Origin: Escherichia coli phage phiS
Length of the DNA: 64,000 bases
Strand: one strand, 5' to 3'
Sequence record: PP449093.1
The notes beneath the pieces were generated by a model. That model saw only the letters and a program-made list of their open reading frames with translations. It searched no databases and was not told the DNA's origin. Shown here in pieces: positions 47,705-63,141 of the stretch (its first letter is position 1; each line of letters opens with the position of its first letter). A program made the translations under genes and the position numbers.

Positions 47705-49705
47705 TTATGCTTGGTTGGGTGGACCGATAATTTCGTCAAAATCAGCACCAGTTGCAACAGCCGTGAAGTTCAATAGAATGTAGTTAATCGATTTTGCTGG
47801 TTTGATGAACATACTGGCAACAAATTCGTTACGATCAATTACATCCGGCGTGTTATTCGTGGTGTCGCATTGTACTCGGAAGTCATAAATGCCGCCCAGA
47901 GAGCGAATCGTGCTGAGATATTGCGAAACCTCCATACGGAAGGAAGCGCGAGTAAAGTTATCGTTGTTTTCAAACAGTTTGTATTTGCTTGAATCGCCGA
48001 TATTCTTTTTCAGCATGTTAAACAGACGACGAACGTTAATGCGGTCAAACGGGCTAGGAACAGTCGTAGCGGTTTTATCACCCATCAGGATAAACCCTTC
48101 ACCACCAGCACCGATCACCGGGTTAATTGCGGACTGATACAGACGATCGCGGTGCGCTTTGCGAGGCTCAATTGCCAGTTTAACCACGTTCATGATCTGA
48201 CCACGGTTATAACCTGCCGGACTCATCCACGGCTGGGATACAGCATCAGTACGAGCGCACAGACCAGCAATATCAGCAGCCAACGGAACCCAACGGTTTA
48301 CGTCGTTGTATTTGTCATACTGATATTTGTAGTTACCATCAATAACCGCGTAAGTGGTATTAATGTTCATGTTGTTTTCATTATAGTTTCCTGAACCTTC
48401 GCGCCATGCAATCAGGTTATCAATTGCGGTAGTCACCGGAATATTAACAACAGTGCTACGCGGCGGAGAAACCATTACTAAGCAATCCTGACGCTCATCA
48501 CCGATGGAAACAGCATGTTTCTGTACGGTAGAGAACGCATCGCCTTCGCCAGCACATGCACCAGCGATCAACAGGTTTACGTGAATAGATTCACGTTCAG
48601 CAAACAGATCCCAACCTTGCATCATCGCACCGATGAACGGATCAGCACCAACTCCACCAGTCGTTGCTTCGTTAGCAGAAACACCACCAGCAAGAGAGAT
48701 AATACCACTGAAACCATCTACCCACCCTTGAGCGGTTGCATAGATGTACTGGCTAGAACCACGAGCAAAGAAGTCGTCCATGTAGATAGAATTGCCGTAT
48801 ACGTCTTTATCCCCTTTCAGAGTAGACAGTACATAGGATTCTACCACAACACCATCGCGACGAACAATAAATGCATATTGATTATCATTCTGCGGTGCAT
48901 ATGGAATCAGGTTGCGTGCTGCGGTGCGCTCGCCACCATAAGGATACATGGTCAGATCCGGTGCAGTATTCTTAAACGCACTACGTGCCAGAATTTCAAC
49001 TTCCAGAGAGTTACCAATCTCACCAGCATAGATCGCGCTTACCGCTGGCATGTCATATTTCTTGAGTTTAGTCAAGAAAGTTTGACTTGTGATATTGGCA
49101 CGGGAAGTTTCCAGATCCGTTAAGAGAAGACCGGAATCGGTAACAATTTTAGTTACTGACAGCGCCGCACTACCGTTACCTGACGAAGAAGTGAACTCTG
49201 CCGTCCAACCTCCATCAAGTTCTGGATATACACCGATTGCTTTAGCGTGAGCGATAATTTTACCAGTTGGGATAAATACGCCCTTAACTTTACCATCACC
49301 ATCAACTTTAGTTACTTTACCTGCCGTTTCAATCTCTTGACGGTTATGTTTAATCTTGATGGTATCGCCTACTTTATAGTTTGAACCTTCGTTTGTGATT
49401 TCAAACTCTACGTTACCAGCTAGGGCAGTTGCGTTTTTTGCTTTTTCTTTATTGAGTACACGAACAACACGCAGGTCATTGCCATACTGGAGGAAGTTAG
49501 CCCCGCTCATGAAATAGTCTGCGGTGTTATTATCCGGCTGACCAAATTTATTAACTAATTCAACTTCATTAGTTACTTGAATAATCTGGAAAGCTGGACC
49601 CCATTGGAATTTACCCACCAGTGCCGCGCGACCAGTCGCAGATTGCACAATGGTAGTGGAGAGAGTAGTTTCTTTCGTTTCGAAACCCGGTGATAATAGA
49701 GTCAT
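47705..49705 (-). CDS. 18: Tail sheath protein gp18
   Basis: 666 aa; position. Confidence 0.9.
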   Translation of the reverse strand: MTLLSPGFETKETTLSTTIVQSATGRAALVGKFQWGPAFQIIQVTNEVELVNKFGQPDNNTADYFMSGANFLQYGNDLRVVRVLNKEKAKNATALAGNVEFEITNEGSNYKVGDTIKIKHNRQEIETAGKVTKVDGDGKVKGVFIPTGKIIAHAKAIGVYPELDGGWTAEFTSSSGNGSAALSVTKIVTDSGLLLTDLETSRANITSQTFLTKLKKYDMPAVSAIYAGEIGNSLEVEILARSAFKNTAPDLTMYPYGGERTAARNLIPYAPQNDNQYAFIVRRDGVVVESYVLSTLKGDKDVYGNSIYMDDFFARGSSQYIYATAQGWVDGFSGIISLAGGVSANEATTGGVGADPFIGAMMQGWDLFAERESIHVNLLIAGACAGEGDAFSTVQKHAVSIGDERQDCLVMVSPPRSTVVNIPVTTAIDNLIAWREGSGNYNENNMNINTTYAVIDGNYKYQYDKYNDVNRWVPLAADIAGLCARTDAVSQPWMSPAGYNRGQIMNVVKLAIEPRKAHRDRLYQSAINPVIGAGGEGFILMGDKTATTVPSPFDRINVRRLFNMLKKNIGDSSKYKLFENNDNFTRASFRMEVSQYLSTIRSLGGIYDFRVQCDTTNNTPDVIDRNEFVASMFIKPAKSINYILLNFTAVATGADFDEIIGPPNQA

Positions 49706-49736
49706 TAGAATTTCCTCATCTTTTTATGCATTATCG

Positions 49737-53345
<3,609 letters not shown>

Positions 53346-53358
53346 AATAAATTACCTC

Positions 53359-54192
53359 TTAAAATTCTCTTACAATACGTGGACCCGGTGGAGTCGGTGC
53401 AACTGGTATTGGAATATCACTAGAATATGATTCTTTGATAGTTCCGTCCCATTCTTCTTGCTCGACGTCACGTTTAACGACCTCGTGATCCACAGATTCA
53501 AAATTACCGCTAGGATTTAATTCACGAGAATTAGCATGAAAATCAAGATAAATCGTTCTGATTTCCCCCTTAACGTCGGTAGCTGGAGGATAGATAAACC
53601 CGATGAACTCAAACATAATGGTCCACTCAAGACGACGACGAGAAAACTTATCTTCGCCTACCTGTTCATCTGGAGTAATAGAACTAATTGTGACCTGAAT
53701 ATCTCGATCAATCCATACATCATTACCGTGTAGTTCTTTAATCTTACAGTTAAAATGAGGCTGGAAGTAAGGAAGAATCTGTTCAATTATCTGAAACATA
53801 TCATCTTCGTTACGTGTATAAATCCCCAGCTCGAAGGTAAACTTATATGGTACAGGATTATATTGTGTCACACTCCTGATACCATCAGCCGTATATTTTG
53901 GTACTGTCTTATTTGCAATATTTGTTTTAAAGTTCTGGGCGTATGTCATATCAATCAAAGAAAGACACATACGAGGTAAAATAGTTTCTACCTTTGCTAC
54001 GTCTTCCTCGCTTAAGATATTGTTATATTTGTCCAGACTCATCATGAATTTTTCTTTCTTTGCGTAGGTGATAGGAACTTTAATAAAACGCTCACCGTCA
54101 CTACGCACCCTTTTAATTTGTACGCCGGAGAATAAATTACCCAGCAATACAATATATCTTCTAATTGACGAATTATAGTGCCAACCGAACAT
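53359..54192 (-). CDS. 15: Tail sheath stabiliser / tail completion protein gp15
   Basis: N-terminus MFGWHYNSSIRRY and YFQPHFN blocks resemble T4 gp15; AAGGGGG RBS. Confidence 0.8.
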   Translation of the reverse strand: MFGWHYNSSIRRYIVLLGNLFSGVQIKRVRSDGERFIKVPITYAKKEKFMMSLDKYNNILSEEDVAKVETILPRMCLSLIDMTYAQNFKTNIANKTVPKYTADGIRSVTQYNPVPYKFTFELGIYTRNEDDMFQIIEQILPYFQPHFNCKIKELHGNDVWIDRDIQVTISSITPDEQVGEDKFSRRRLEWTIMFEFIGFIYPPATDVKGEIRTIYLDFHANSRELNPSGNFESVDHEVVKRDVEQEEWDGTIKESYSSDIPIPVAPTPPGPRIVREF

Positions 54193-54218
54193 TTGACCCC
54201 CTTGTTTATGAGTATTTA

Positions 54219-54959
54219 TCAAAAATTAGCAAAAGGTGAACCAGTGCCATTAATAGGATCAAACGGGTCAATAAAATCTTGTCCTTCGCTTCTGAATTGC
54301 TTATCTTCTTTGTACTGATCTAAGTTGATATCTGTTAACCCGTCCAGATTAGTGATCGGTGCAAGGTCCAGATCCGCAAACTCATCAACATTAATTCCCT
54401 CATTGCGTTGTAATTCTGGTCGCAATTCCTCACCGCTATACACGAATTTCTCTGCAATAATTTTACGCATGGCATTTTTGCCAGCCTGAAAAAACGGCTG
54501 ATATGGCTCTACATATGAGATTTCAAATAAATCATTGCTCATAGGAATGTAAAACAAATCACCGGATTTAGGCTCTTGGTTATCTACTTGATGTTTAAAT
54601 AAATTTGGATTTATAGTTATGGTTAACTCATCATTAGCGGTATAACCGAAAGATTGAAAGAAATTGCCAGCACCCTCATACCCATCGAAAGAATTTATGT
54701 ATGCTGCAAACTTCCACGCCTTAGTGAATTTGCTTTGCACGTCCTCCCCAAATATCATATCAGGTTTCACAAATTCTCTCGGTATGTAGTACATCTCGAC
54801 GCCGCGCATTTGTATAGACTCGGCAACCATAATATCGGCTAGAGTTTGTGTATTTGTATGTGAATTGAAATTCACATAAGGATTGAGAATTTCTGTTTGT
54901 CTAGTGTTCTCATAATCCTTCTGTGACTCCAATCTGGCAAATAATGTAGAGTCAAACAT
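54219..54959 (-). CDS. 14: Neck protein gp14
   Basis: 246 aa; LNPYVNFN and KNEGINV blocks. Confidence 0.75.
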
Positions 54960-55536
54960 AATAAAACTCCTTCCATTTTTCTGCGGTTGACTTTACTCGT
55001 TTCCTCATAGAAGCGGCTGATATCCCATACTTTCTACAACATTCTTGAGTGGTTAAGTATAGAACACCTTCTGCCATAATTTTTCTTGCGCCTTTAAAAT
55101 TTTCCCAATCTCTATTTCTATTTTTTGCCGATTGACTCATTTTATTTTTAGTCTCGTCTGAGTGAGATTCTCTTTTTCGACTGGATGCTTTTTCAGATAT
55201 TTTTCTTCTTGCTTCATTTTTGGTTTCTTCGTCCATGTCATCCCACAAAGAACCTCTATTCACTCCACCCAGAGCAATATTATATGTATCTTCTCTTTCT
55301 ACAAATTCCTTAGTCACTATCTTTTTTTCTGCTAAAGCTAGTTCTTCTAACGTGTTGTGTGTGGAAAGAATAGTTTTTGTGAAGTTCTCTATTCCATACT
55401 TTTTTATTGCTCTTTTAATTCGTTTTCCGCTCCCCCAATAAGAATCCTTTTCTATTGGTTTTCTGGACGTTCTCATACCAACATAGACCATCCCATTTAA
55501 ATTATTTGTTATTTGATATAGATAATAATATGCCAT
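54952..55536 (-). CDS. GIY-YIG homing endonuclease (Seg-like) inserted between genes 13 and 14
   Basis: GIY-YIG core [20 protein letters not shown]...YWGSG; K/R-rich NUMOD3-like repeats; C-terminal HTH-like. Confidence 0.7.
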
Positions 55537-55603
55537 ATGATTCTCCTTTTTATGTTCTCGTCAGATCATACACTAACGAGAACATATTAGTCAACACATT
55601 TAA

Positions 55604-56536
55604 TCAAATCATGAGGATGCCGAACGGAGGATCTAATAATTCTAGTTCTTGTCGCAATTTCTCAATGTCGGCTCGTGCTTCTTCAATGATTCGGATACCA
55701 TCAACAGTGACACCACCGGGTAATTGCAGACCTTGATGTTTAGCCATGATGGACCCCCAAACCTCCTTAGTGAAGGCGGTGGCCATATCTTTCACCCAAC
55801 GGTTATTATATGCGCCCTGCTTGTTCTCACTGATCGGTCCCATGCCAGCAACAATCCCGCTTAAACCAGCAGTTGGGTTATCATAAACGGCGCTAATCCC
55901 GCCAGCGGTAGAACATCCTCCCGCATGAGCATAACCAGCAACCGCACCGATCATATCAGGAACGTCTATATAGCTTTTAACATATAATTCAACAACAATG
56001 AGATCACCTTCTCGGAAGTTTCCTGTAATCTTAAGTTGTCCGTTTGCGCTATTATACCAATAATCTGGAAGCGGATTGAGCATATTTTGCATAGTTGCGC
56101 GATAGCTCATAAGCTGTTCGAAATATCCCAGATCACCGCCCATTGCATTTGGACCATAAAATTTACTACAGCCAGATCCTAAACCGCCATTTACACCCGC
56201 TAAACCCAACAGAAAGTCAGTAAACCACGGATAAACGGCAGTGCCATCCATCGTAGCCGCGCTACCTACGTTTGTTCGAATTATTTTAGTTACTGCGAAT
56301 ACTCCAGAATCGCTTAAATCAAATACCCCGTGTTGCGCTTGCTCTGCACTAACACGAAATACTTTATATCCTTTATTCACACCATCGAAATGATATTCCC
56401 CATAGAGTTCTAGTGCTCTCTGAATACAATCGTAAATCTGGTCTTCTGTGACTTCTACGTTAATTACTGGTGCGCCTAAACGACGCAGAATAGCGTCTTT
56501 TAATTCTCTTGGGTTATTGGTTACATATCCTGACAT
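55604..56536 (-). CDS. 13: Neck protein gp13
   Basis: 310 aa; position. Confidence 0.75.
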
Positions 56537-56582
56537 AATATCACCTATAAACGGAAAAGGGGCTTAACGCCCCTTTAATTTC

Positions 56583-58352
56583 TTATACCGGAGAAATTCC
56601 AAAGAGGAACTCTTTAATTTGTAGCTGTTGCGCTAATGCTTCTTCGGATACGCCCTTAATGCGAATATCGATCCGGTCGCCCTTTTCAATATTTAGGAAA
56701 GCACTGGTAGAATAGCTAATTAAATCATCAGGTCCATAATGACCATTTCGTACCTCATGTACAATCAGACCATTTTTAGCAATACCGACTACGAAAGTAG
56801 CGTTATGTGCCGCATTTACAGAACAACGGAAATCACAACGGAATAAGCCTTTGTCGTTAACCGTAACAAGAGATTCGCTCTTAACCATTCCACGCGCAGG
56901 AACTTCTTCGGTCATATCGTTTAGCGGGATTCCTTTGTATTGATCTTGTCCGTCGAGAGTAATATCAATCTGAGCGGTGTTTTTAAATGCACCAGCCGCC
57001 CATGCGACCTGAACCCATTCCCCGTGCTTACGTAGATAATGGAAACCATCATCAGGAACGTCTGTTACCTTGCTTGCATTTGATGTGCTCAATTCCTTAA
57101 CAGTTTTCACGATCCCATCTTGTTCAAGCTGCGTGCTTCCTTCTGGATTGCCGTACATGTCGCTTGACAGCTTAATAACCCCGGCGGTTAGACCGGAATC
57201 TCGATCTCCGATCATTTGCTCGATATCCTGTACGCTAGCTTCTAGTCGTCCCTGTGTATTTTCTACAATTTTTAGACGACCTGCGATAGTATGACGCTCA
57301 CTATCAGTACCAACTGTGTTAGAGATTCGTGCAACCTCACCACGTAGACCATCAGCACCACTAACACCGACAATAGATTTAAGATCTACAAATTCCCGTT
57401 CTTGATTAGTCAATCGATAATCAATACTTCCAGCGGCTTGAGGACTGCCAATCGTATTTTCCAGAAGAGTTAAACGAGGACGGATACCAGCGTCAACCCC
57501 GTTGACTTCATCATTAAGCTGTGTATAATCAGATTGTAGCTTAGTTACTTTAGTACCGATATCAGGAATTGATTCAAATAGAATCGCTTTCTTTACTTCC
57601 TGAACTTCGTTTGATATACTAGCGATATTGCGAGTATTTGTGCGAAGACGAAGATAAACATTGTCCTGTGTTGCTAGTGATGTGTCGCCTAGCTCGCTTC
57701 GCATTTTGTTAACTTGTTCTGTTAGCTCTCCAACGTCAGAATCTTGCCAGTCGTTTTCTAGTTGGCGGATTCGCTGACCGTGGTTGTTTAATGCTTCCGT
57801 ATTCTGGATAACTCGATATTTGATACCGGAACCGGAACTACCCGGATCTGGAGAGCCGTTGATATTGAAGTTAGGGAAAGCGCCCAATTCTTGTTTGATG
57901 AAAGAAATATCATCATATATTGTTCGTGTACTCGGATCTGCTGCCGGACGAACACCAATTTTCTTTCCTGTCTCTGCCAGTTCATCTACTGTGGTTTGTA
58001 ATGTCCTTGAAGTTTCTCCTAAATTTTCTTCTACAGACTCAACCTTTGAAATAGTTTGATTGACAATATCAATAATACTACCATCAGCAACCGCGCCTAA
58101 AGTAGTTTTAATATCATTAACTGCTGTAACAACTTCGTTAACTTTTGTTACCGTTGTCTTAGAATTTTCATCCAGACGAACAATATTTTCTTGAATAGCA
58201 TAAGGGGCGCGGTTAAGCGTCCCCTCATGTCCTGTTTCTGTGGTTGCTGCGCTTAGACATTCACCATTTTTAATCCAGCTAATAGAATGCTGTCCCTCTC
58301 CAGGGACACCATCGACGTTAGGGATCTTTCGAATGTTTAACTGTTCGATCAT
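56583..58352 (-). CDS. wac: Fibritin (whisker, wac-like) with an extra C-terminal domain
   Basis: Long heptad-repeat region; foldon-like GFHYLRKHGEWVQV; about 140 aa more after it. Confidence 0.6.
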   Translation of the reverse strand: MIEQLNIRKIPNVDGVPGEGQHSISWIKNGECLSAATTETGHEGTLNRAPYAIQENIVRLDENSKTTVTKVNEVVTAVNDIKTTLGAVADGSIIDIVNQTISKVESVEENLGETSRTLQTTVDELAETGKKIGVRPAADPSTRTIYDDISFIKQELGAFPNFNINGSPDPGSSGSGIKYRVIQNTEALNNHGQRIRQLENDWQDSDVGELTEQVNKMRSELGDTSLATQDNVYLRLRTNTRNIASISNEVQEVKKAILFESIPDIGTKVTKLQSDYTQLNDEVNGVDAGIRPRLTLLENTIGSPQAAGSIDYRLTNQEREFVDLKSIVGVSGADGLRGEVARISNTVGTDSERHTIAGRLKIVENTQGRLEASVQDIEQMIGDRDSGLTAGVIKLSSDMYGNPEGSTQLEQDGIVKTVKELSTSNASKVTDVPDDGFHYLRKHGEWVQVAWAAGAFKNTAQIDITLDGQDQYKGIPLNDMTEEVPARGMVKSESLVTVNDKGLFRCDFRCSVNAAHNATFVVGIAKNGLIVHEVRNGHYGPDDLISYSTSAFLNIEKGDRIDIRIKGVSEEALAQQLQIKEFLFGISPV

Positions 58353-59755
58353 TATTGTACCCTTATCATGTAGTTTAATGCAAGGCTTTTAACGCGAGTT
58401 TCGCCAGACGTTCTAACCTGTCTTGCGCTGTCAAAGTTAACAATACTACCCCAATCATCACCACCACCGTTTTTATAGTTCGTGCTCCATTGACCACCTG
58501 TGATGGAAAATGCACCACCAGTCCAACCGCGCCAACGGTTAGCTACAGGGAAGTTACCTGTCATATGTTGCATGGTGTCGTCTTGATAAGTACCAAATCC
58601 ACGACCTGGGTCTAGTCCTCGACCGTGGTCGCATCCTCTAGCAACAAGCCCTCGCATATCGGGTAGAGCAAAGTTGTCTCCGCCATCTCCGCCGTAAGTG
58701 AAACCGATTCGTGAAAATAATACTGGATATTGGTGTTTATTTAACCATTGACCGTTACAGATTTTGAATTGTGCGTGGTCGAAACTGTTAAATGCTGTAA
58801 GAATGATGCCACCAATAGGCATACAAAGACCATCCAGTTCATTTTTAATGATAAACTGGTTTCCGTCGCCTCCGCTATGACGATACACATCACCAGTAAC
58901 GACACCACCACTTAGAGGCAATACACGAGCATTTGCCGACAGTGCTGTGTTTGCCTCGCCTGATCCTGGGTTATCTGTTAGCTTAACAACACCGAATTGT
59001 CCAGTGGTTGCTTTAGTGTTCGCAAATTTTTGTGCTGATACTACTACTGTGTTGTCATTGCCGTCAATCATTTGTTGGGATGAGGCAATTTTAACAGTAC
59101 CCGCCTGATTTTCATTGGCTCTTGCGTTGGAAAATGCATATGGACTAACGGCAAATCCTTCTCTGATAGTACCAGCAAGCGTTTGTTGGCTTGTCGCCAG
59201 TCTAACTAAACCCTCACGGGACTCGGTCGCCGTGTTTTGTTCTGGAATCAACCCAGGAACAATCTGAGCAATAGCAGCGTGCATCTTTTTAGGCGTTACT
59301 GCCATAGTGTCATCGCTACCTATTTTTGCCGCATCCATAGAACAGATTTTAATTGTACCCTGTACGGTTTCCGTTGCTTTCTTGTTCTCGAATACATGGG
59401 TTAATGTATCAGGACCAATTGCAATATTTGGAGTATCGCCCATAGCTTCATCGTTATTAGCATAGCGAGTGATCCCTTTGACAAGTTTTGTTGCGTCCGG
59501 TCTTGACAGCTTAACAGCCAATGTTTTTGGGGTAACAATTTTAGTTCCATCCAACCCATCATCTACTTCTTGTTGAGTAGCAATTTCAGCAATACCCGCT
59601 GTTTCTTCGGTTGCCGTTGGAAGACCTGCAATCGCAAATCCCTGAATAGCGGCTAATGCCGCTTGTACGTTTTTTATATTGCTAGGCCAATTTCCGGTAG
59701 GGTCAAACTTAACATACTGTGCATCGTCTTTTACGTGATTAATAGTGTTATTCAT
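58352..59755 (-). CDS. 12: Short tail fibre gp12
   Basis: N-terminal repeats (ETAGIAEIATQQEVDDG, ETVQGTIKICS, REGLVRLATSQQ, QAGTVKIASSQQ) typical of gp12. Confidence 0.75.
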   Translation of the reverse strand: MNNTINHVKDDAQYVKFDPTGNWPSNIKNVQAALAAIQGFAIAGLPTATEETAGIAEIATQQEVDDGLDGTKIVTPKTLAVKLSRPDATKLVKGITRYANNDEAMGDTPNIAIGPDTLTHVFENKKATETVQGTIKICSMDAAKIGSDDTMAVTPKKMHAAIAQIVPGLIPEQNTATESREGLVRLATSQQTLAGTIREGFAVSPYAFSNARANENQAGTVKIASSQQMIDGNDNTVVVSAQKFANTKATTGQFGVVKLTDNPGSGEANTALSANARVLPLSGGVVTGDVYRHSGGDGNQFIIKNELDGLCMPIGGIILTAFNSFDHAQFKICNGQWLNKHQYPVLFSRIGFTYGGDGGDNFALPDMRGLVARGCDHGRGLDPGRGFGTYQDDTMQHMTGNFPVANRWRGWTGGAFSITGGQWSTNYKNGGGDDWGSIVNFDSARQVRTSGETRVKSLALNYMIRVQ

Positions 59756-59766
59756 AATTTTACACC

Positions 59767-60411
59767 TTACGCAATACGCTTAAAATAAAATAGTGTTGAA
59801 TCAAATTTTTCTTCCGTTCCCAATCTGGACCATGCACCATAACCATAACGAGCAGGGGAATTTATTTCCCCACGAACGCTAATACCATATTTTTCTACGA
59901 CCGTTGCTTCGTGTGCGTTTGAATCAATATACTGAATCTCTATTTTATCATTACCAGTGCCTTTCCGCTCAACTTTAGAGAATAAGATACTTTTGTCTTT
60001 CAATTCAGTAAATTTTGTTGTGACCATTTCGCATAATGCAACATTCGATGTTCCAACATTAACAACAAATGGATAACCCAAAACTTCAATTACAACTTTT
60101 GTCGCGGCTGGATCGTGTTTATTTGTTACCGTTCCAGTGAAAGAAAGAGTTTCTATTTGTCCCGCCGCTTCCGGTGGAGTTGAATTTGTAGTTACCAATA
60201 CATCACCGACATTAAGCATAGAAATGCTATACAAATCATCAATGGCTGATTGTACGTTGTTAATAAAAGAACCTTTGCGAGATTGGTCTACGTTTAATCC
60301 ACCAATTGGGCGAATGTCACCAATAATGGGGTCTTTCGACCCCGGATCGTATGAAATGAATGCTGCGTCGCTAGAAAATACGCTTGCTTTAGAACGTGTT
60401 TTAGAAATCAT
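59767..60411 (-). CDS. 11: Baseplate wedge / short tail fibre attachment protein gp11
   Basis: 214 aa; position. Confidence 0.7.
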   Translation of the reverse strand: MISKTRSKASVFSSDAAFISYDPGSKDPIIGDIRPIGGLNVDQSRKGSFINNVQSAIDDLYSISMLNVGDVLVTTNSTPPEAAGQIETLSFTGTVTNKHDPAATKVVIEVLGYPFVVNVGTSNVALCEMVTTKFTELKDKSILFSKVERKGTGNDKIEIQYIDSNAHEATVVEKYGISVRGEINSPARYGYGAWSRLGTEEKFDSTLFYFKRIA

Positions 60412-60412
60412 A

Positions 60413-62215
60413 TTAACCTACCCTTAACCAGCGATGAACGGTACGATATGGAGGAAGAATACCCATCATTGATGGATCAGCATTTCCAGAATTAACTTTT
60501 ACGATATCCTCTCTATATTTCGTAAACGCTGGACCTGCCGCATCAGGATCAACTTGACAACCACCAATGATAATTGACCCTGTATCGTCTTTCACCAAAA
60601 CACGATCGCTGGATTGTAATTCAGGAATCATATCTTTCTTGATTTGATAGGCAACTTCACCACCAGTACCACCAGCGGTGTGTGTAGGTTGTCCATGAAT
60701 ATCAAGATCGTTATTGTTTAATGCAAAATTCTGGTCGCTGGCATCAGAAGACCAACCAGCAAGAAATTCTCCTTCCGCATACCGAACCCAGATACCAATA
60801 CCCATATATGTCGCTGGGTTAGCTGGGTTATGTGCGTTTTCGTATATCGTGCCGATCGGATGGAAAATATCAAACAGTGCATATATATCCATAATTCGAC
60901 CTGAATACTCTTCTGCCGGACGAGTGTTTTTCTGGCTAGGATTCTGGAAGTCGGTATATTCAATTTGTTTTGTTAAATTAACTTCGTCTTCGTTATTGAG
61001 ATAAATCTTGTCTGCTTTTTCTTTAATTCCGCCGACACCATCCCATTCTAATAGAGTTCCGATATCGTTATTAAACCAACGAATTGTTATAGTATCTCTA
61101 TTGTCCAACGCTTTAGCTAATTTAATCCCTGTTACAATGCTATTCTCATCAAATACCAGTGAATAATCTTCTCCAGACTGTACCCACTGACCGCCAGCAA
61201 GTGCGCAACTCTCTTCGGTTTCTCCGTCAGCACCTTCACAAACAAACGAAGGAAGATCAGCATCACCAGCTTTAATCATTTGAGTACCATTTATTAATAA
61301 CTCAAATGAATTTGGGTTAATTATATCACGTTTACTAACTCCCAAATCAGCATTGGTAAATTCTTTTTTCGTCGATAAATCACCTACCCACACTTCACCC
61401 GGAATAGTTTCTAGTGCTGTCATTCCGGTATCATACACTCTAATTGTGTGTGTGATATAACTAGATCGGAATGATGCAATTCCGTCCATATATGTAATAA
61501 TTTGAACGGTGTCCCCAGCCGAACAAGGAAAACGAAGTTTTATGCTTTTGCCATCAAGTTCAACAAGTGATCCATCCTCACCAATTGAACCGTAGTTAGA
61601 GTCATTACTAAAAGACTTGCCATAATATAAAAGGTTTCCTCGATAATATACTTCAACATTTCGAGTGTTATATGTGTTAGAACCAAATACATTAGGGAAA
61701 TCTGTTTGCCCTTCTGTGGCAATATAAACTTCCTTAGCTACTGTGCTTAGGTCAGACGTGGTGATCGTGTCAACTCGCTTGTTTTCGATATATTCCCAGC
61801 GTCCAGGCGCACAATAAACCAGTTCAACATCCATAAAATCTTTATACAACTCACGGTCGATTGGAGATCCCTTAATGGTATCACCTTGTGCTGGCTTCAA
61901 TGTTACGTTATGTGCAGCCCATGAGCGCCAAACATCACGAAGTTTAATTGTTTTATTGTAATCACTCGCGCTTCCTTTAGGCAATTCAACAGAAACAGCG
62001 TTGTTCGTTGTATTAATTGCCCATGCATCACCAAAATTTGGTTTTAATACTGGTTGTGTGTGAGTTTTCCACGCGCCGGATGCATGGGGGATATCACCGT
62101 CCCCCAGCTTAGTATAAAGTTCAGAAAAGTTGTCATTAATCTTTTGACCGCCTTTTCTTAGATAATCACCTGTACCGTCATCAACAACGTTACCGATATT
62201 AATTAATTGTTTCAT
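60413..62215 (-). CDS. 10: Baseplate wedge protein gp10
   Basis: 600 aa; position. Confidence 0.8.
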   Translation of the reverse strand: MKQLINIGNVVDDGTGDYLRKGGQKINDNFSELYTKLGDGDIPHASGAWKTHTQPVLKPNFGDAWAINTTNNAVSVELPKGSASDYNKTIKLRDVWRSWAAHNVTLKPAQGDTIKGSPIDRELYKDFMDVELVYCAPGRWEYIENKRVDTITTSDLSTVAKEVYIATEGQTDFPNVFGSNTYNTRNVEVYYRGNLLYYGKSFSNDSNYGSIGEDGSLVELDGKSIKLRFPCSAGDTVQIITYMDGIASFRSSYITHTIRVYDTGMTALETIPGEVWVGDLSTKKEFTNADLGVSKRDIINPNSFELLINGTQMIKAGDADLPSFVCEGADGETEESCALAGGQWVQSGEDYSLVFDENSIVTGIKLAKALDNRDTITIRWFNNDIGTLLEWDGVGGIKEKADKIYLNNEDEVNLTKQIEYTDFQNPSQKNTRPAEEYSGRIMDIYALFDIFHPIGTIYENAHNPANPATYMGIGIWVRYAEGEFLAGWSSDASDQNFALNNNDLDIHGQPTHTAGGTGGEVAYQIKKDMIPELQSSDRVLVKDDTGSIIIGGCQVDPDAAGPAFTKYREDIVKVNSGNADPSMMGILPPYRTVHRWLRVG

Positions 62216-63066
62216 GTAGCAACCCCGATTTTAATAGTGTCTACGGCTTTAACTGCTAAACGAATATTTTCGCCAGTAGCCTTATACTCTGCATATACTT
62301 TATCGCCGGAACCGATGAAATAACGAACTTTGTATAGCTCATCTTCTGTCTTCTGCAAAACTGCATATTCCGTCGCATAAACTTTTCCGGCTTTAGAATC
62401 AATCATCAGTAGCGTTTCACTTGAACGCATTTTTGAACCGGATGTATTGCTAGCGGTAGTTAATAATTTGATGGAAACGTATTCTGTTTTTGCGGCAATA
62501 GCAACGTTTGTTGCTACTCCAGTTACGTTAACTGTTTTATCTAATGGCATTGTTGTATCGGTAAACATACTTTCGATACCCAATCGCCATGTTACGCGAC
62601 TACCTTCAACGGCAGTACACCAAACAGTGACTTTTGAGAAAGGTTGAGTTATTACCGCGTCACCTGAATACCCGCTAATAGAATCACCTGCTTGAGTTCG
62701 AATATTGAGCGGTGTCGTCGTTGAAAAGCTACCGTTACTATTTATGAATACAACACCCTCACCAACCTTTGCTTTAGGTAGAATAGCAATAAGTGCGCCT
62801 TGAGTTGTATCGATATCGTGTAGACTCCCAATCTCAACAGCGGAACCAGCGTAGCTTTGACGTGGATGTTTCTGATAGTATCCGGTTGCATGAATAACCA
62901 TTCTTCCCACGCCGTGGTCTATGTCTTTAAACCGTTGATCAGCGAATGCGTCATAGATTGAATCAAAGTTATCGTTAATTTTATTACCGCCATCATATAA
63001 GATATCGCCAGTCGATGGATTGCCGACAGTACCTGTGTCTATTCTTTTCTTTGGAACTTGTGCCAT
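62212..63066 (-). CDS. 9: Baseplate wedge / long tail fibre connector gp9
   Basis: N-terminal IDTGTVGNPSTGDILYDGGNKINDNF and C-terminal KIGVA resemble T4 gp9. Confidence 0.8.
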   Translation of the reverse strand: MAQVPKKRIDTGTVGNPSTGDILYDGGNKINDNFDSIYDAFADQRFKDIDHGVGRMVIHATGYYQKHPRQSYAGSAVEIGSLHDIDTTQGALIAILPKAKVGEGVVFINSNGSFSTTTPLNIRTQAGDSISGYSGDAVITQPFSKVTVWCTAVEGSRVTWRLGIESMFTDTTMPLDKTVNVTGVATNVAIAAKTEYVSIKLLTTASNTSGSKMRSSETLLMIDSKAGKVYATEYAVLQKTEDELYKVRYFIGSGDKVYAEYKATGENIRLAVKAVDTIKIGVAT

Positions 63067-63141
63067 TGTTTAATTCCTCATGTTATGATGTATTATTTAT
63101 AAAATACATACAAAAAAGCCGCCCACAAGGACGGCTTATAA

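Follow-up and report, generated by a model that had tools for sequence, protein, structure and literature searches.

The neck-gene locus of phage phiS

The window analysed here is the whole stretch of 64,000 nucleotides from Escherichia coli phage phiS (PP449093.1). On the minus strand of the window, at 54952..55536, is an ORF of 194 amino acids with an ATG start, here called seg, which has Pfam and PHROG matches and is 99% identical to the gene annotated as segC in phages Phi1, ECD7, and kvi. It is flanked upstream by gp13 (55604..56536, minus strand), encoding a neck protein of 310 amino acids that matches PHROG_211 (head-tail adaptor Ad2), and downstream by gp14 (54219..54959, minus strand), encoding a neck protein (head closure) of 246 amino acids that matches the Pfam T4_neck-protein family (E=7e-101); both are annotated under these names in Phi1 and RB49. 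The orientation of seg is that of all of its neighbouring genes, and gp15, gp16, and gp17 lie further downstream of gp14. Megablast with 54100-56700 identified 57 records, all of them Krischvirus, so the phiS neck region is of the RB49-like Straboviridae type, the closest records being ECD7 (98.0%), Phi1 (97.4%), and kvi (96.9%).

From the stop codon of gp13 to the start of gp14, seg forms an ORF of its own, outside any intron or intein. An Rfam scan of 49000-58000 (E<=0.1) returned zero matches and therefore no group I intron, which rules out an intron-encoded endonuclease. The ORF is an intact, selfish, free-standing homing endonuclease gene between two neck genes, and the enzyme is probably active.

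The gene is already known: three public genomes have it annotated, and the annotation goes back to the Phi1 record (EF437941). In Phi1, ECD7, and kvi the product is called either 'SegC homing endonuclease' or 'homing endonuclease', and phi1 segC is one of the seven genes of phi1 that are missing from RB49 (Arbiol et al. 2010, PMC2839356). In all three phages the gene, which is phi1p149.1 in Phi1, has the same gene 13/14 position, the same junctions, and the same upstream cassette as in phiS, and the encoded proteins have 99.0-99.5% amino acid identity to that of seg. The changes amount to one or two amino acids: R25 of phiS is K in the others, D127E is found in Phi1, and N141K in ECD7.

The GIY-YIG catalytic domain

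Pfam, a family profile, AlphaFold2, and Foldseek all place a GIY-YIG catalytic domain in amino acids 1-95 (55252..55536, minus strand), with Y7, Y18-V-G20, E70, and N86 at the expected positions. Residues 5-79 match PF19835 (SegE_GIY-YIG) with 29.8 bits, exceeding the curated cut-off of 25, and the protein matches PHROG_314, 'homing endonuclease', with E=4.7e-45. When a profile built from 35 seg homologues was compared with the I-TevI catalytic-domain structures 1ln0 and 1mk0, the match had E=1e-3. I-TevI, the endonuclease of the T4 td intron, has the same catalytic fold, and its Tyr, Tyr, Glu, and Asn positions align with those of seg: Y7 (in Y-L-Y) with Y6, Y18-V-G20 with Y17-V-G19, E70 with the metal-binding E75, and Y85-N86 with Y89-N90. 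Across a family alignment of 62 sequences, Y7, G20, E70, and N86 are invariant and Y18 is present in at least 90%; the phiS protein retains 16 out of 16 invariant and eight out of eight nearly invariant positions.

The canonical Arg is the exception, since I-TevI R27 falls in an indel relative to the Seg profile and sequence alignment leaves the residue unplaced. The best candidate in seg is R22, which is H or R across the 35 homologues, and the second is R25, the residue that is Lys in Phi1, ECD7, and kvi. The helix-1 region of I-TevI (R27/H31) is shortened in seg, which has a Seg-specific Y-x-G-S-G motif instead.

The AlphaFold2 model has a mean pLDDT of 86.9, rising to 96-98 over residues 1-90, and its strands (3-11, 17-24, and 52-60) and helices (38-47 and 63-73) form the GIY-YIG sheet and helix fold. 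A Foldseek search of the PDB with this model gave a probability of 1.0 only for the I-TevI catalytic domain (1mk0/1ln0), with 27-29% identity and a target-normalised TM-score of 0.62-0.64. By all testable criteria, the seg protein belongs to the Seg/I-TevI branch of the GIY-YIG homing endonucleases, and as such it would be predicted to make site-specific double-strand cuts with 2-nt 3′ overhangs.

The linker and C-terminal DNA-binding region

The catalytic domain is followed by a basic linker at amino acids 100-140 (55117..55239, minus strand), containing two weak NUMOD3-like repeats. Pfam NUMOD3 matches residues 125-138 weakly, with 14.8 bits, which is under the cut-off of 20.4. The two copies, one of which is degenerate, have the pattern S/D-E-E/T-K…K-I/M-S in the family alignment and align with the S-x-E-x-K-x-K-I-S columns of those homologues in which PF07460 is present. 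The linker lacks a zinc finger, as there is no Cys/His cluster and the sole cysteines are C165 and C166; the zinc finger is an I-TevI-specific feature and is not required in Seg proteins. Unlike I-TevI, seg is therefore without a zinc finger, as well as not being intron-encoded.

Amino acids 148-192 (54961..55095, minus strand) correspond to a helix-turn-helix subdomain of the I-TevI type, with Pfam I-TevI_DNA-bd matches of E=6e-4 to 7e-5 and a match to PDB 1i3j. As a single sequence, seg scores 20-23 bits against I-TevI_DNA-bd (PF20987), 23.1 at best and under the cut-off of 27, and matches 1i3j with E=4.4e-4, in an alignment that begins past the zinc-finger part. A profile made from the C-termini of five Krischvirus neck-region endonucleases matched the helix-turn-helix of 1i3j, residues 61-113, with E=1.7e-10, and PF20987 is matched by the C-termini of all five. 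The match of seg to the DNA-binding module of I-TevI (1i3j) takes in the minor-groove helix and the helix-turn-helix, with the C-terminal KW..FY motif. The C-terminal third of the AlphaFold2 model is of low confidence (pLDDT 59-84) and no classical helix-turn-helix is visible in it; because this part is too uncertain, support for the subdomain is taken from profile homology.

The first-pass annotation of this DNA had described a Seg-like GIY-YIG endonuclease with NUMOD3-like basic repeats and a C-terminal helix-turn-helix, and had raised the possibility that catalytic residues would be lacking on alignment. The assignment to the endonuclease family is borne out by the Pfam score above cut-off, PHROG_314, the I-TevI alignment, and the AlphaFold2 and Foldseek results. 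Four of the five canonical catalytic positions are aligned to I-TevI, with the Arg unplaced, and the lack of catalytic residues that would have refuted the assignment is not seen. The helix-turn-helix is upheld by the profile of the five C-termini, whereas the repeats are recognizable as two copies in the family alignment but not as a NUMOD3 match above the Pfam cut-off.

Relationship to T4 SegC and other Seg endonucleases

Within the T4 group, the closest relative is T4 SegC, with 35.5% identity over residues 3-190 (97% of the length) in a co-linear alignment. SegC has 196 amino acids in T4_ev151 and shares with seg the layout of an N-terminal GIY-YIG domain and a basic C-terminus. It is an experimentally active free-standing GIY-YIG endonuclease (Table 1, PMC2988022).

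The genomic location is different. A tblastn search of T4-type records with the seg protein found its best place at the 5.1/5.4 locus, and T4 segC lies between 5.1 and 5.3/5.4, at 80196-80618, adjoining gene 5.1; T4 genes 13 and 14 adjoin directly, with no gene between. Since T4 segC is at another locus, phiS seg must have a different target. For the same reason, seg is best described as 'SegC-like', a name that reflects best-hit similarity, and not as a positional orthologue, and the annotation 'SegC' in the Krischviruses should be read in this way. The expression signals differ too: T4 segC is a promoter-less cassette with a 20-bp overlap with its upstream gene (PMC2988022), whereas phiS seg has a promoter-like element of its own and a 67-bp spacer.

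SegF and SegG, which mediate intronless homing, resemble seg in being free-standing between conserved genes and in having a one-sided foreign tract in the neighbouring gene. Measurements exist for SegF and SegG of the cleavage site, of marker exclusion, and of co-conversion gradients. The homing traits of phiS seg, unlike theirs, are deduced from comparative sequence only.

Candidate promoter, leader, and initiation signals

The leader of seg consists of the 67 bp between gp13 and the seg ATG. It contains a candidate sigma70-like promoter, TTGACT-18 nt-TATGAT (55565..55594, minus strand), which agrees with the consensus at 10 out of 12 positions and ranks first among the promoter matches on the region's coding strand; promoter-like sites as a class are not enriched across the region (10 found, 8.7 expected from shuffled sequence), and the function of this one is putative. 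Overlapping the -10 box is a stem-loop with a 14-bp stem (55551..55586, minus strand), with an RNA fold of -26.3 kcal/mol (z=-3.1), and a Shine-Dalgarno AGGAG (55543..55547, minus strand), read from the sequence, is located 6 nt upstream of the ATG. Phi1, ECD7, and kvi have exactly the same promoter sequence, and their leaders differ from that of phiS by a single A in the A-run before the Shine-Dalgarno. In Krischvirus E26, which has a related gene at the same place, the equivalent leader has TTTACA-17-TATAAT and a similar stem, despite sequence divergence.

Arrangements of this kind have been described in phi1 and RB49 as PeSL cassettes, in which an intergenic sigma70-like promoter is combined with a stem-loop as attenuator (Arbiol et al. 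2010, PMC2839356). The seg leader has the PeSL layout, with a sigma70-like promoter and stem-loop followed by a Shine-Dalgarno and ATG. The stem, of which one arm is ATGTTCTCGTTAGT, is without G or C tracts, unlike the typical polyG/polyC stem of PeSL, and because these are absent the leader is named 'PeSL-like' only. The hairpin is not an intrinsic terminator, as it is followed by an A-run and no T-run and was not called in a terminator scan; a role as attenuator is possible.

No T4 late promoter (TATAAATA) is present on the coding strand from 49744 to 63094, ruling out that such a promoter drives seg or gp14 from within this interval. With no T4-type late promoter nearby, late expression of seg would therefore be by read-through.

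At the other end of the gene, the initiation region of gp14 is inside the 3′ end of seg (54952..54971, minus strand), with AGGAG at 54967-54971 and the ATG at 54957-54959. The ATG overlaps the seg stop codon as ATGTTTGA. The cassette has replaced the spacer found in RB49, together with its hairpin and the original gp14 Shine-Dalgarno. On this reading of the sequence, the ribosome-binding site of gp14 is supplied by the seg cassette.

Endonuclease genes in the gp13/gp14 spacer

The 57 Krischvirus records from megablast were surveyed for synteny. The spacer between genes 13 and 14 is empty in 34 of them, including RB49, in which it is 36 bp long and includes the gp14 Shine-Dalgarno as well as a GGGGG-AGTATT-CCCCC hairpin. 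Five records, representing three phages (Phi1, ECD7, and kvi), two of which have duplicate records, contain seg. A relative of 311 amino acids occupies the spacer in E26 (one record), a gene of 271 amino acids, of the Makalu_002/KFS-EC type, is there in five records, and a gene of 214 amino acids, of the G37-3 type, in three. Between genes 14 and 15, seven records have a gene of 251 amino acids (JSE/FL20 type), and two records are double, with the G37-3 type at 13/14 and the JSE/FL20 type at 14/15. As in seg, the E26, Makalu_002/KFS-EC, G37-3, and JSE/FL20 proteins are GIY-YIG proteins with C-termini of the I-TevI type. At least four different endonuclease genes thus use the gp13/gp14 spacer within Krischvirus. 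Both the insertion of seg between genes 13 and 14 of an otherwise conserved neck module, as first proposed, and the synteny comparison suggested for checking it are supported by this survey: the RB49 site is empty, and presence or absence at the spacer is polymorphic among phages that are 92-98% identical.

The types also differ in where they are inserted. At single-base resolution, seg replaces the interval from two bases past the gp13 stop codon to the gp14 ATG; the spacer has been replaced in both the phiS and the E26 types. The Makalu type is inserted upstream of a retained spacer hairpin, and the G37-3 type within the loop of the hairpin. Sequence comparison marks the endonuclease genes at gp13/gp14 as independent insertions into one small spacer. 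The 3′ junction of the E26 gene is identical to that of seg, the two having the last ~39 nt in common. The E26 protein is much longer, with more NUMOD3 repeats, but seg is not a deletion derivative of this gene, because outside the last ~13 residues the identity is only 37-39%. In the Makalu and G37-3 types it is the gp13 side that is divergent, with the last 100 nt 85-87% identical to RB49, which suggests targets that differ from that of seg.

Footprints in the flanking genes

Compared with RB49, the phiS gp13 has 97-100% identity up to its stop codon. On the other side of seg, the 5′ end of gp14 is a foreign tract (54500..54959, minus strand), recognized in a sliding identity profile and by segment identities, that is about 76% identical to RB49-type gp14. 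Along these first ~460 nt, identity to RB49 is 60-85%, after which it returns abruptly to 97-100%; substitutions are densest in the first ~50 nt, with about 60% identity. Among codons 1-153, 75 of those that differ from RB49 are synonymous and 15 non-synonymous. The pattern is that of an allele from a long-separated lineage. When the tract was compared by blastn with 50,697 phage records, nothing exceeded 77.5% beyond the seg-containing phages, pEJ01, and Makalu_002. In IMG/VR the sole close Seg relative was ECD7, and the 79 more distant relatives all lay away from gp13, gp14, and gp15. The donor of the gp14 tract is therefore unsampled.

The phages with seg also share a haplotype block of low diversity (54769..55672, minus strand), with two to five differences where 23-38 would be expected from the flanks, a contrast for which formal P values are optimistic because the limits of the block were set with the differences already in view. 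The block, of ~900 bp, reaches from 70 nt before the end of gp13, through the leader and the whole of seg, to nt 190 of gp14. Among the four phages, seg is 99.3-99.8% identical, compared with gp13 at 96-97.6% and gp14 at about 97%, and the flanking neck genes differ by 2.4-4%. A near-invariant seg between diverged flanks indicates, from these comparisons, that the cassette has recently spread laterally into different genomic backgrounds.

These data bear on whether seg might be a recently inactivated or decaying endonuclease that cuts no DNA and is kept only for the initiation signals of gp14. The embedding of the gp14 Shine-Dalgarno in the seg ORF and the overlap of the gp14 ATG with it would fit such a remnant, as would the Arg that is not located, the shortness of seg relative to its 311 amino acid E26 relative with more NUMOD3 repeats, and the low allelic variation, the alleles differing by 1-4 nt, which is too few for measuring purifying selection. 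Against these stand an ORF that is intact in four independent isolates, the keeping of every one of the 16 invariant family positions, co-linearity with the active T4 SegC, and the near-identity of seg between diverged flanks, which is more in keeping with recent spread than with a long stay at the site. Decay is therefore considered improbable, and a functional endonuclease is the preferred reading of the gene.

Two phages without seg carry parts of the foreign tract. In pEJ01 there is an empty RB49-type spacer, followed by RB49-type sequence in gp14 nt 1-135 and then phiS-type sequence to ~460, and Makalu_002 has the most distal part of the tract. It follows from these partial tracts that recombination occurs within it; the mosaic of pEJ01, as reconstructed, is a recombination product of the kind expected for homing. 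The distal part of the tract in phiS itself has about 12 private or Makalu-like variants.

Free-standing endonucleases cleave away from their own gene, repair resects into the homology beyond, and flanking markers are co-converted (PMC2988022). The foreign tract and the low-diversity block are consistent with homing of this type, which they do not prove, and the foreign tract could instead have come from one old recombination event.

More generally, the cassette might have moved passively, through PeSL-like elements or ordinary exchange of gp13-seg-gp14, with the endonuclease having no causal role. The 5′ junction does have a PeSL-like promoter and stem-loop, the empty site bears a GGGGG/CCCCC stem-loop of the kind tied to cassette shuffling (PMC2839356), and the seg-less tracts of pEJ01 and Makalu_002 indicate that plain recombination is active. 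However, the PeSL-like element flanks the cassette on a single side, the 3′ junction being inside the gp14 initiation region, and most PeSL traffic is in the hyperplastic regions according to Arbiol et al. (PMC2839356). Four nuclease genes have also landed independently in a 36-bp spacer, with another at gp14/gp15, and the clustering of five nuclease genes at gp13/14/15 is left unexplained by passive movement but is predicted by nuclease-driven targeting. Passive movement is possible for individual recombination events but is unlikely to be the general explanation, for which homing driven by the endonuclease is preferred.

A proposed model for homing of seg

Taken as a whole, the observations are best explained if seg encodes a free-standing GIY-YIG homing endonuclease that is functional and of the T4 Seg/I-TevI type, a reading to which a probability of roughly 80% is given. 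Transcription would be from the sigma70-like early promoter within the cassette and by read-through of the late gene 13 message. A transcript from the early promoter would start within the 3′ arm of the stem and so be without the hairpin, which would form in the read-through RNA from gene 13. Homology and modelling of the domains suggest that the C-terminal helix-turn-helix and NUMOD3-like helices would anchor the protein on a long asymmetric DNA site, where the tethered N-terminal GIY-YIG domain is predicted to make a double-strand break.

The presumed target is the seg-less gp13-gp14 allele of a related, co-infecting phage. On sequence comparison, the target site is most likely in the 36-bp spacer or in the first ~190 nt of gp14 of seg-less phages, because the shared block ends there and gp13 is alike in phages with and without seg. 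Repair of the break by recombination would copy the cassette, together with the adjacent part of gp14, from the seg-containing genome, amounting to intronless homing with co-conversion. A genome with seg would itself be immune, since the spacer has been replaced and the 5′ end of gp14 is heavily substituted. Clean loss of seg would be difficult, because the cassette gives the essential gp14 its ribosome-binding site and a coupled start codon.

As seg fits the well-studied Seg/I-TevI paradigm, the discovery value is small. The new elements are the footprints of co-conversion and lateral spread, the leader with promoter and stem-loop, the take-over of gp14 initiation, and the hotspot for multiple endonucleases. 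The cassette is a clean natural example, combining a putative early-type promoter of its own, the captured initiation of an essential late gene, and a sharp, one-sided tract.

A broader reading is put forward tentatively, as somewhat less likely than not to hold in full. The spacer would be an arena in which several endonucleases unrelated by descent compete for a 36-bp site, and the phiS type would be actively homing in natural populations, carrying along ~190-460 nt of gp14 that derive from a sister lineage not yet sampled. If this is true, homing endonucleases, and not ordinary recombination, would be the main cause of mosaicism in an essential neck protein, and haplotype boundaries alone would suffice for mapping the cleavage site. 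With the hotspot occurring in the spacer of one genus, the sequenced Krischviruses are suited to testing endonuclease competition and target-site immunity.

Endonuclease genes in the neck region

The 36-bp spacer between gp13 and gp14, which is empty in phage RB49, is occupied by four different GIY-YIG endonuclease genes in different members of the Krischviruses, based on comparison of the gp13-gp15 regions of Makalu_002, G37-3, FL20, and E26 (L003-L006). A fifth GIY-YIG endonuclease gene lies between gp14 and gp15, and in both MIZ4 and MIZ5 two endonuclease genes are present together. For the Makalu and G37-3 types, the flank that diverges is gp13 and not gp14: the ~100 nt at the end of gp13 are 85-87 % identical to RB49. 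The targets of these endonucleases may therefore be on the opposite side.

In pEJ01 (L011, gp14 at 420-1160 of this region), the spacer is empty and of the RB49 type. The first 135 nt of its gp14 are also RB49-type, and from nt 135 to ~460 the gene carries the foreign sequence that is associated with seg, the SegC-like endonuclease gene of the window. This hybrid is either a recombinant that has lost seg or the result of co-conversion without gain of the endonuclease gene.

Upstream, the wac-gp13 spacer of the window holds a GC-rich hairpin, AAAGGGGC-TTAAC-GCCCCTTT (56556..56576), which a scan classed as terminator-like on the plus strand. A terminator is annotated at the equivalent site in G37-3.

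Annotation of related endonucleases

For the 311-aa ORF of E26, annotated as a hypothetical protein (L006, 2353-3288), the true start is probably 13 codons downstream of the annotated one. The latter falls within TTTACA-17-TATAAT, a near-consensus promoter, and its stem-loop; an alternative ATG, suitably spaced from AGGAG, yields MNHYVYKITN…, in agreement with the N-termini of this endonuclease family. In the T4 reference sequence (NC_000866; L009, 4697-5292), the annotation ends segC at 140 aa and makes the 56 aa behind it a gene of their own, 5.3. The same stretch in T4_ev151 (L007, 2486-3076) and many T-even relatives is a single continuous ORF of 196 aa, co-linear with the window seg protein. 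The division into segC and 5.3 is due either to a frameshift or stop codon in the reference T4 or to a sequencing or annotation difference.

Intein and intein-like insertions in the large terminase gene

In the large terminase gene of the window, gp17 (49740..52851, minus strand), the Walker-B motif (…FIYIDE|C…) is the site of a 1288-bp insertion, which breaks the gene into two overlapping ORFs. ORF A (51100..52851, 583 aa) carries the N-terminal part of TerL; next come ~25 aa resembling intein block A, then zinc-ribbon-like motifs rich in Cys, and a nuclease domain similar to TnsA/endonuclease I that is joined in frame. The first ~108 aa of ORF B (49740..51119, 459 aa) match the 'consensus engineered intein CatC' (PDB 6dsl_B, E=1.6e-13) and end in …VESHN|CAF; TerL then restarts at the exact point where ORF A leaves the Pfam Terminase_6N profile. 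From its sequence, the insertion looks like an atypically split intein, with a very short N-piece and a long C-piece.

The same insertion is present in kaaroe, SAP, TB34, G2494, and JK32, and is not in RB49, Phi1, or E26. It resembles the lone 'terminase' fractured gene reported by Dassa et al. (2009; PMC2677866), however that gene came from a metagenome, whereas the window-type split gp17 is found in cultivable coliphages.

In Makalu_002, gp17 (L094, 124-2940) is one undivided ORF of 938 aa with a different, contiguous intein of ~330 aa, which has a LAGLIDADG-like motif (LGYWLGDGH) and is placed in the Walker-A loop (…QLGK|ALDV…THN|TTAV…). Together with the intein-like insertion at Walker-B in the window, the gp17 genes of a single genus therefore harbour two different inteins, each in a different ATPase motif. 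The gp17 of ELT3 also has an insertion, of ~1 kb.
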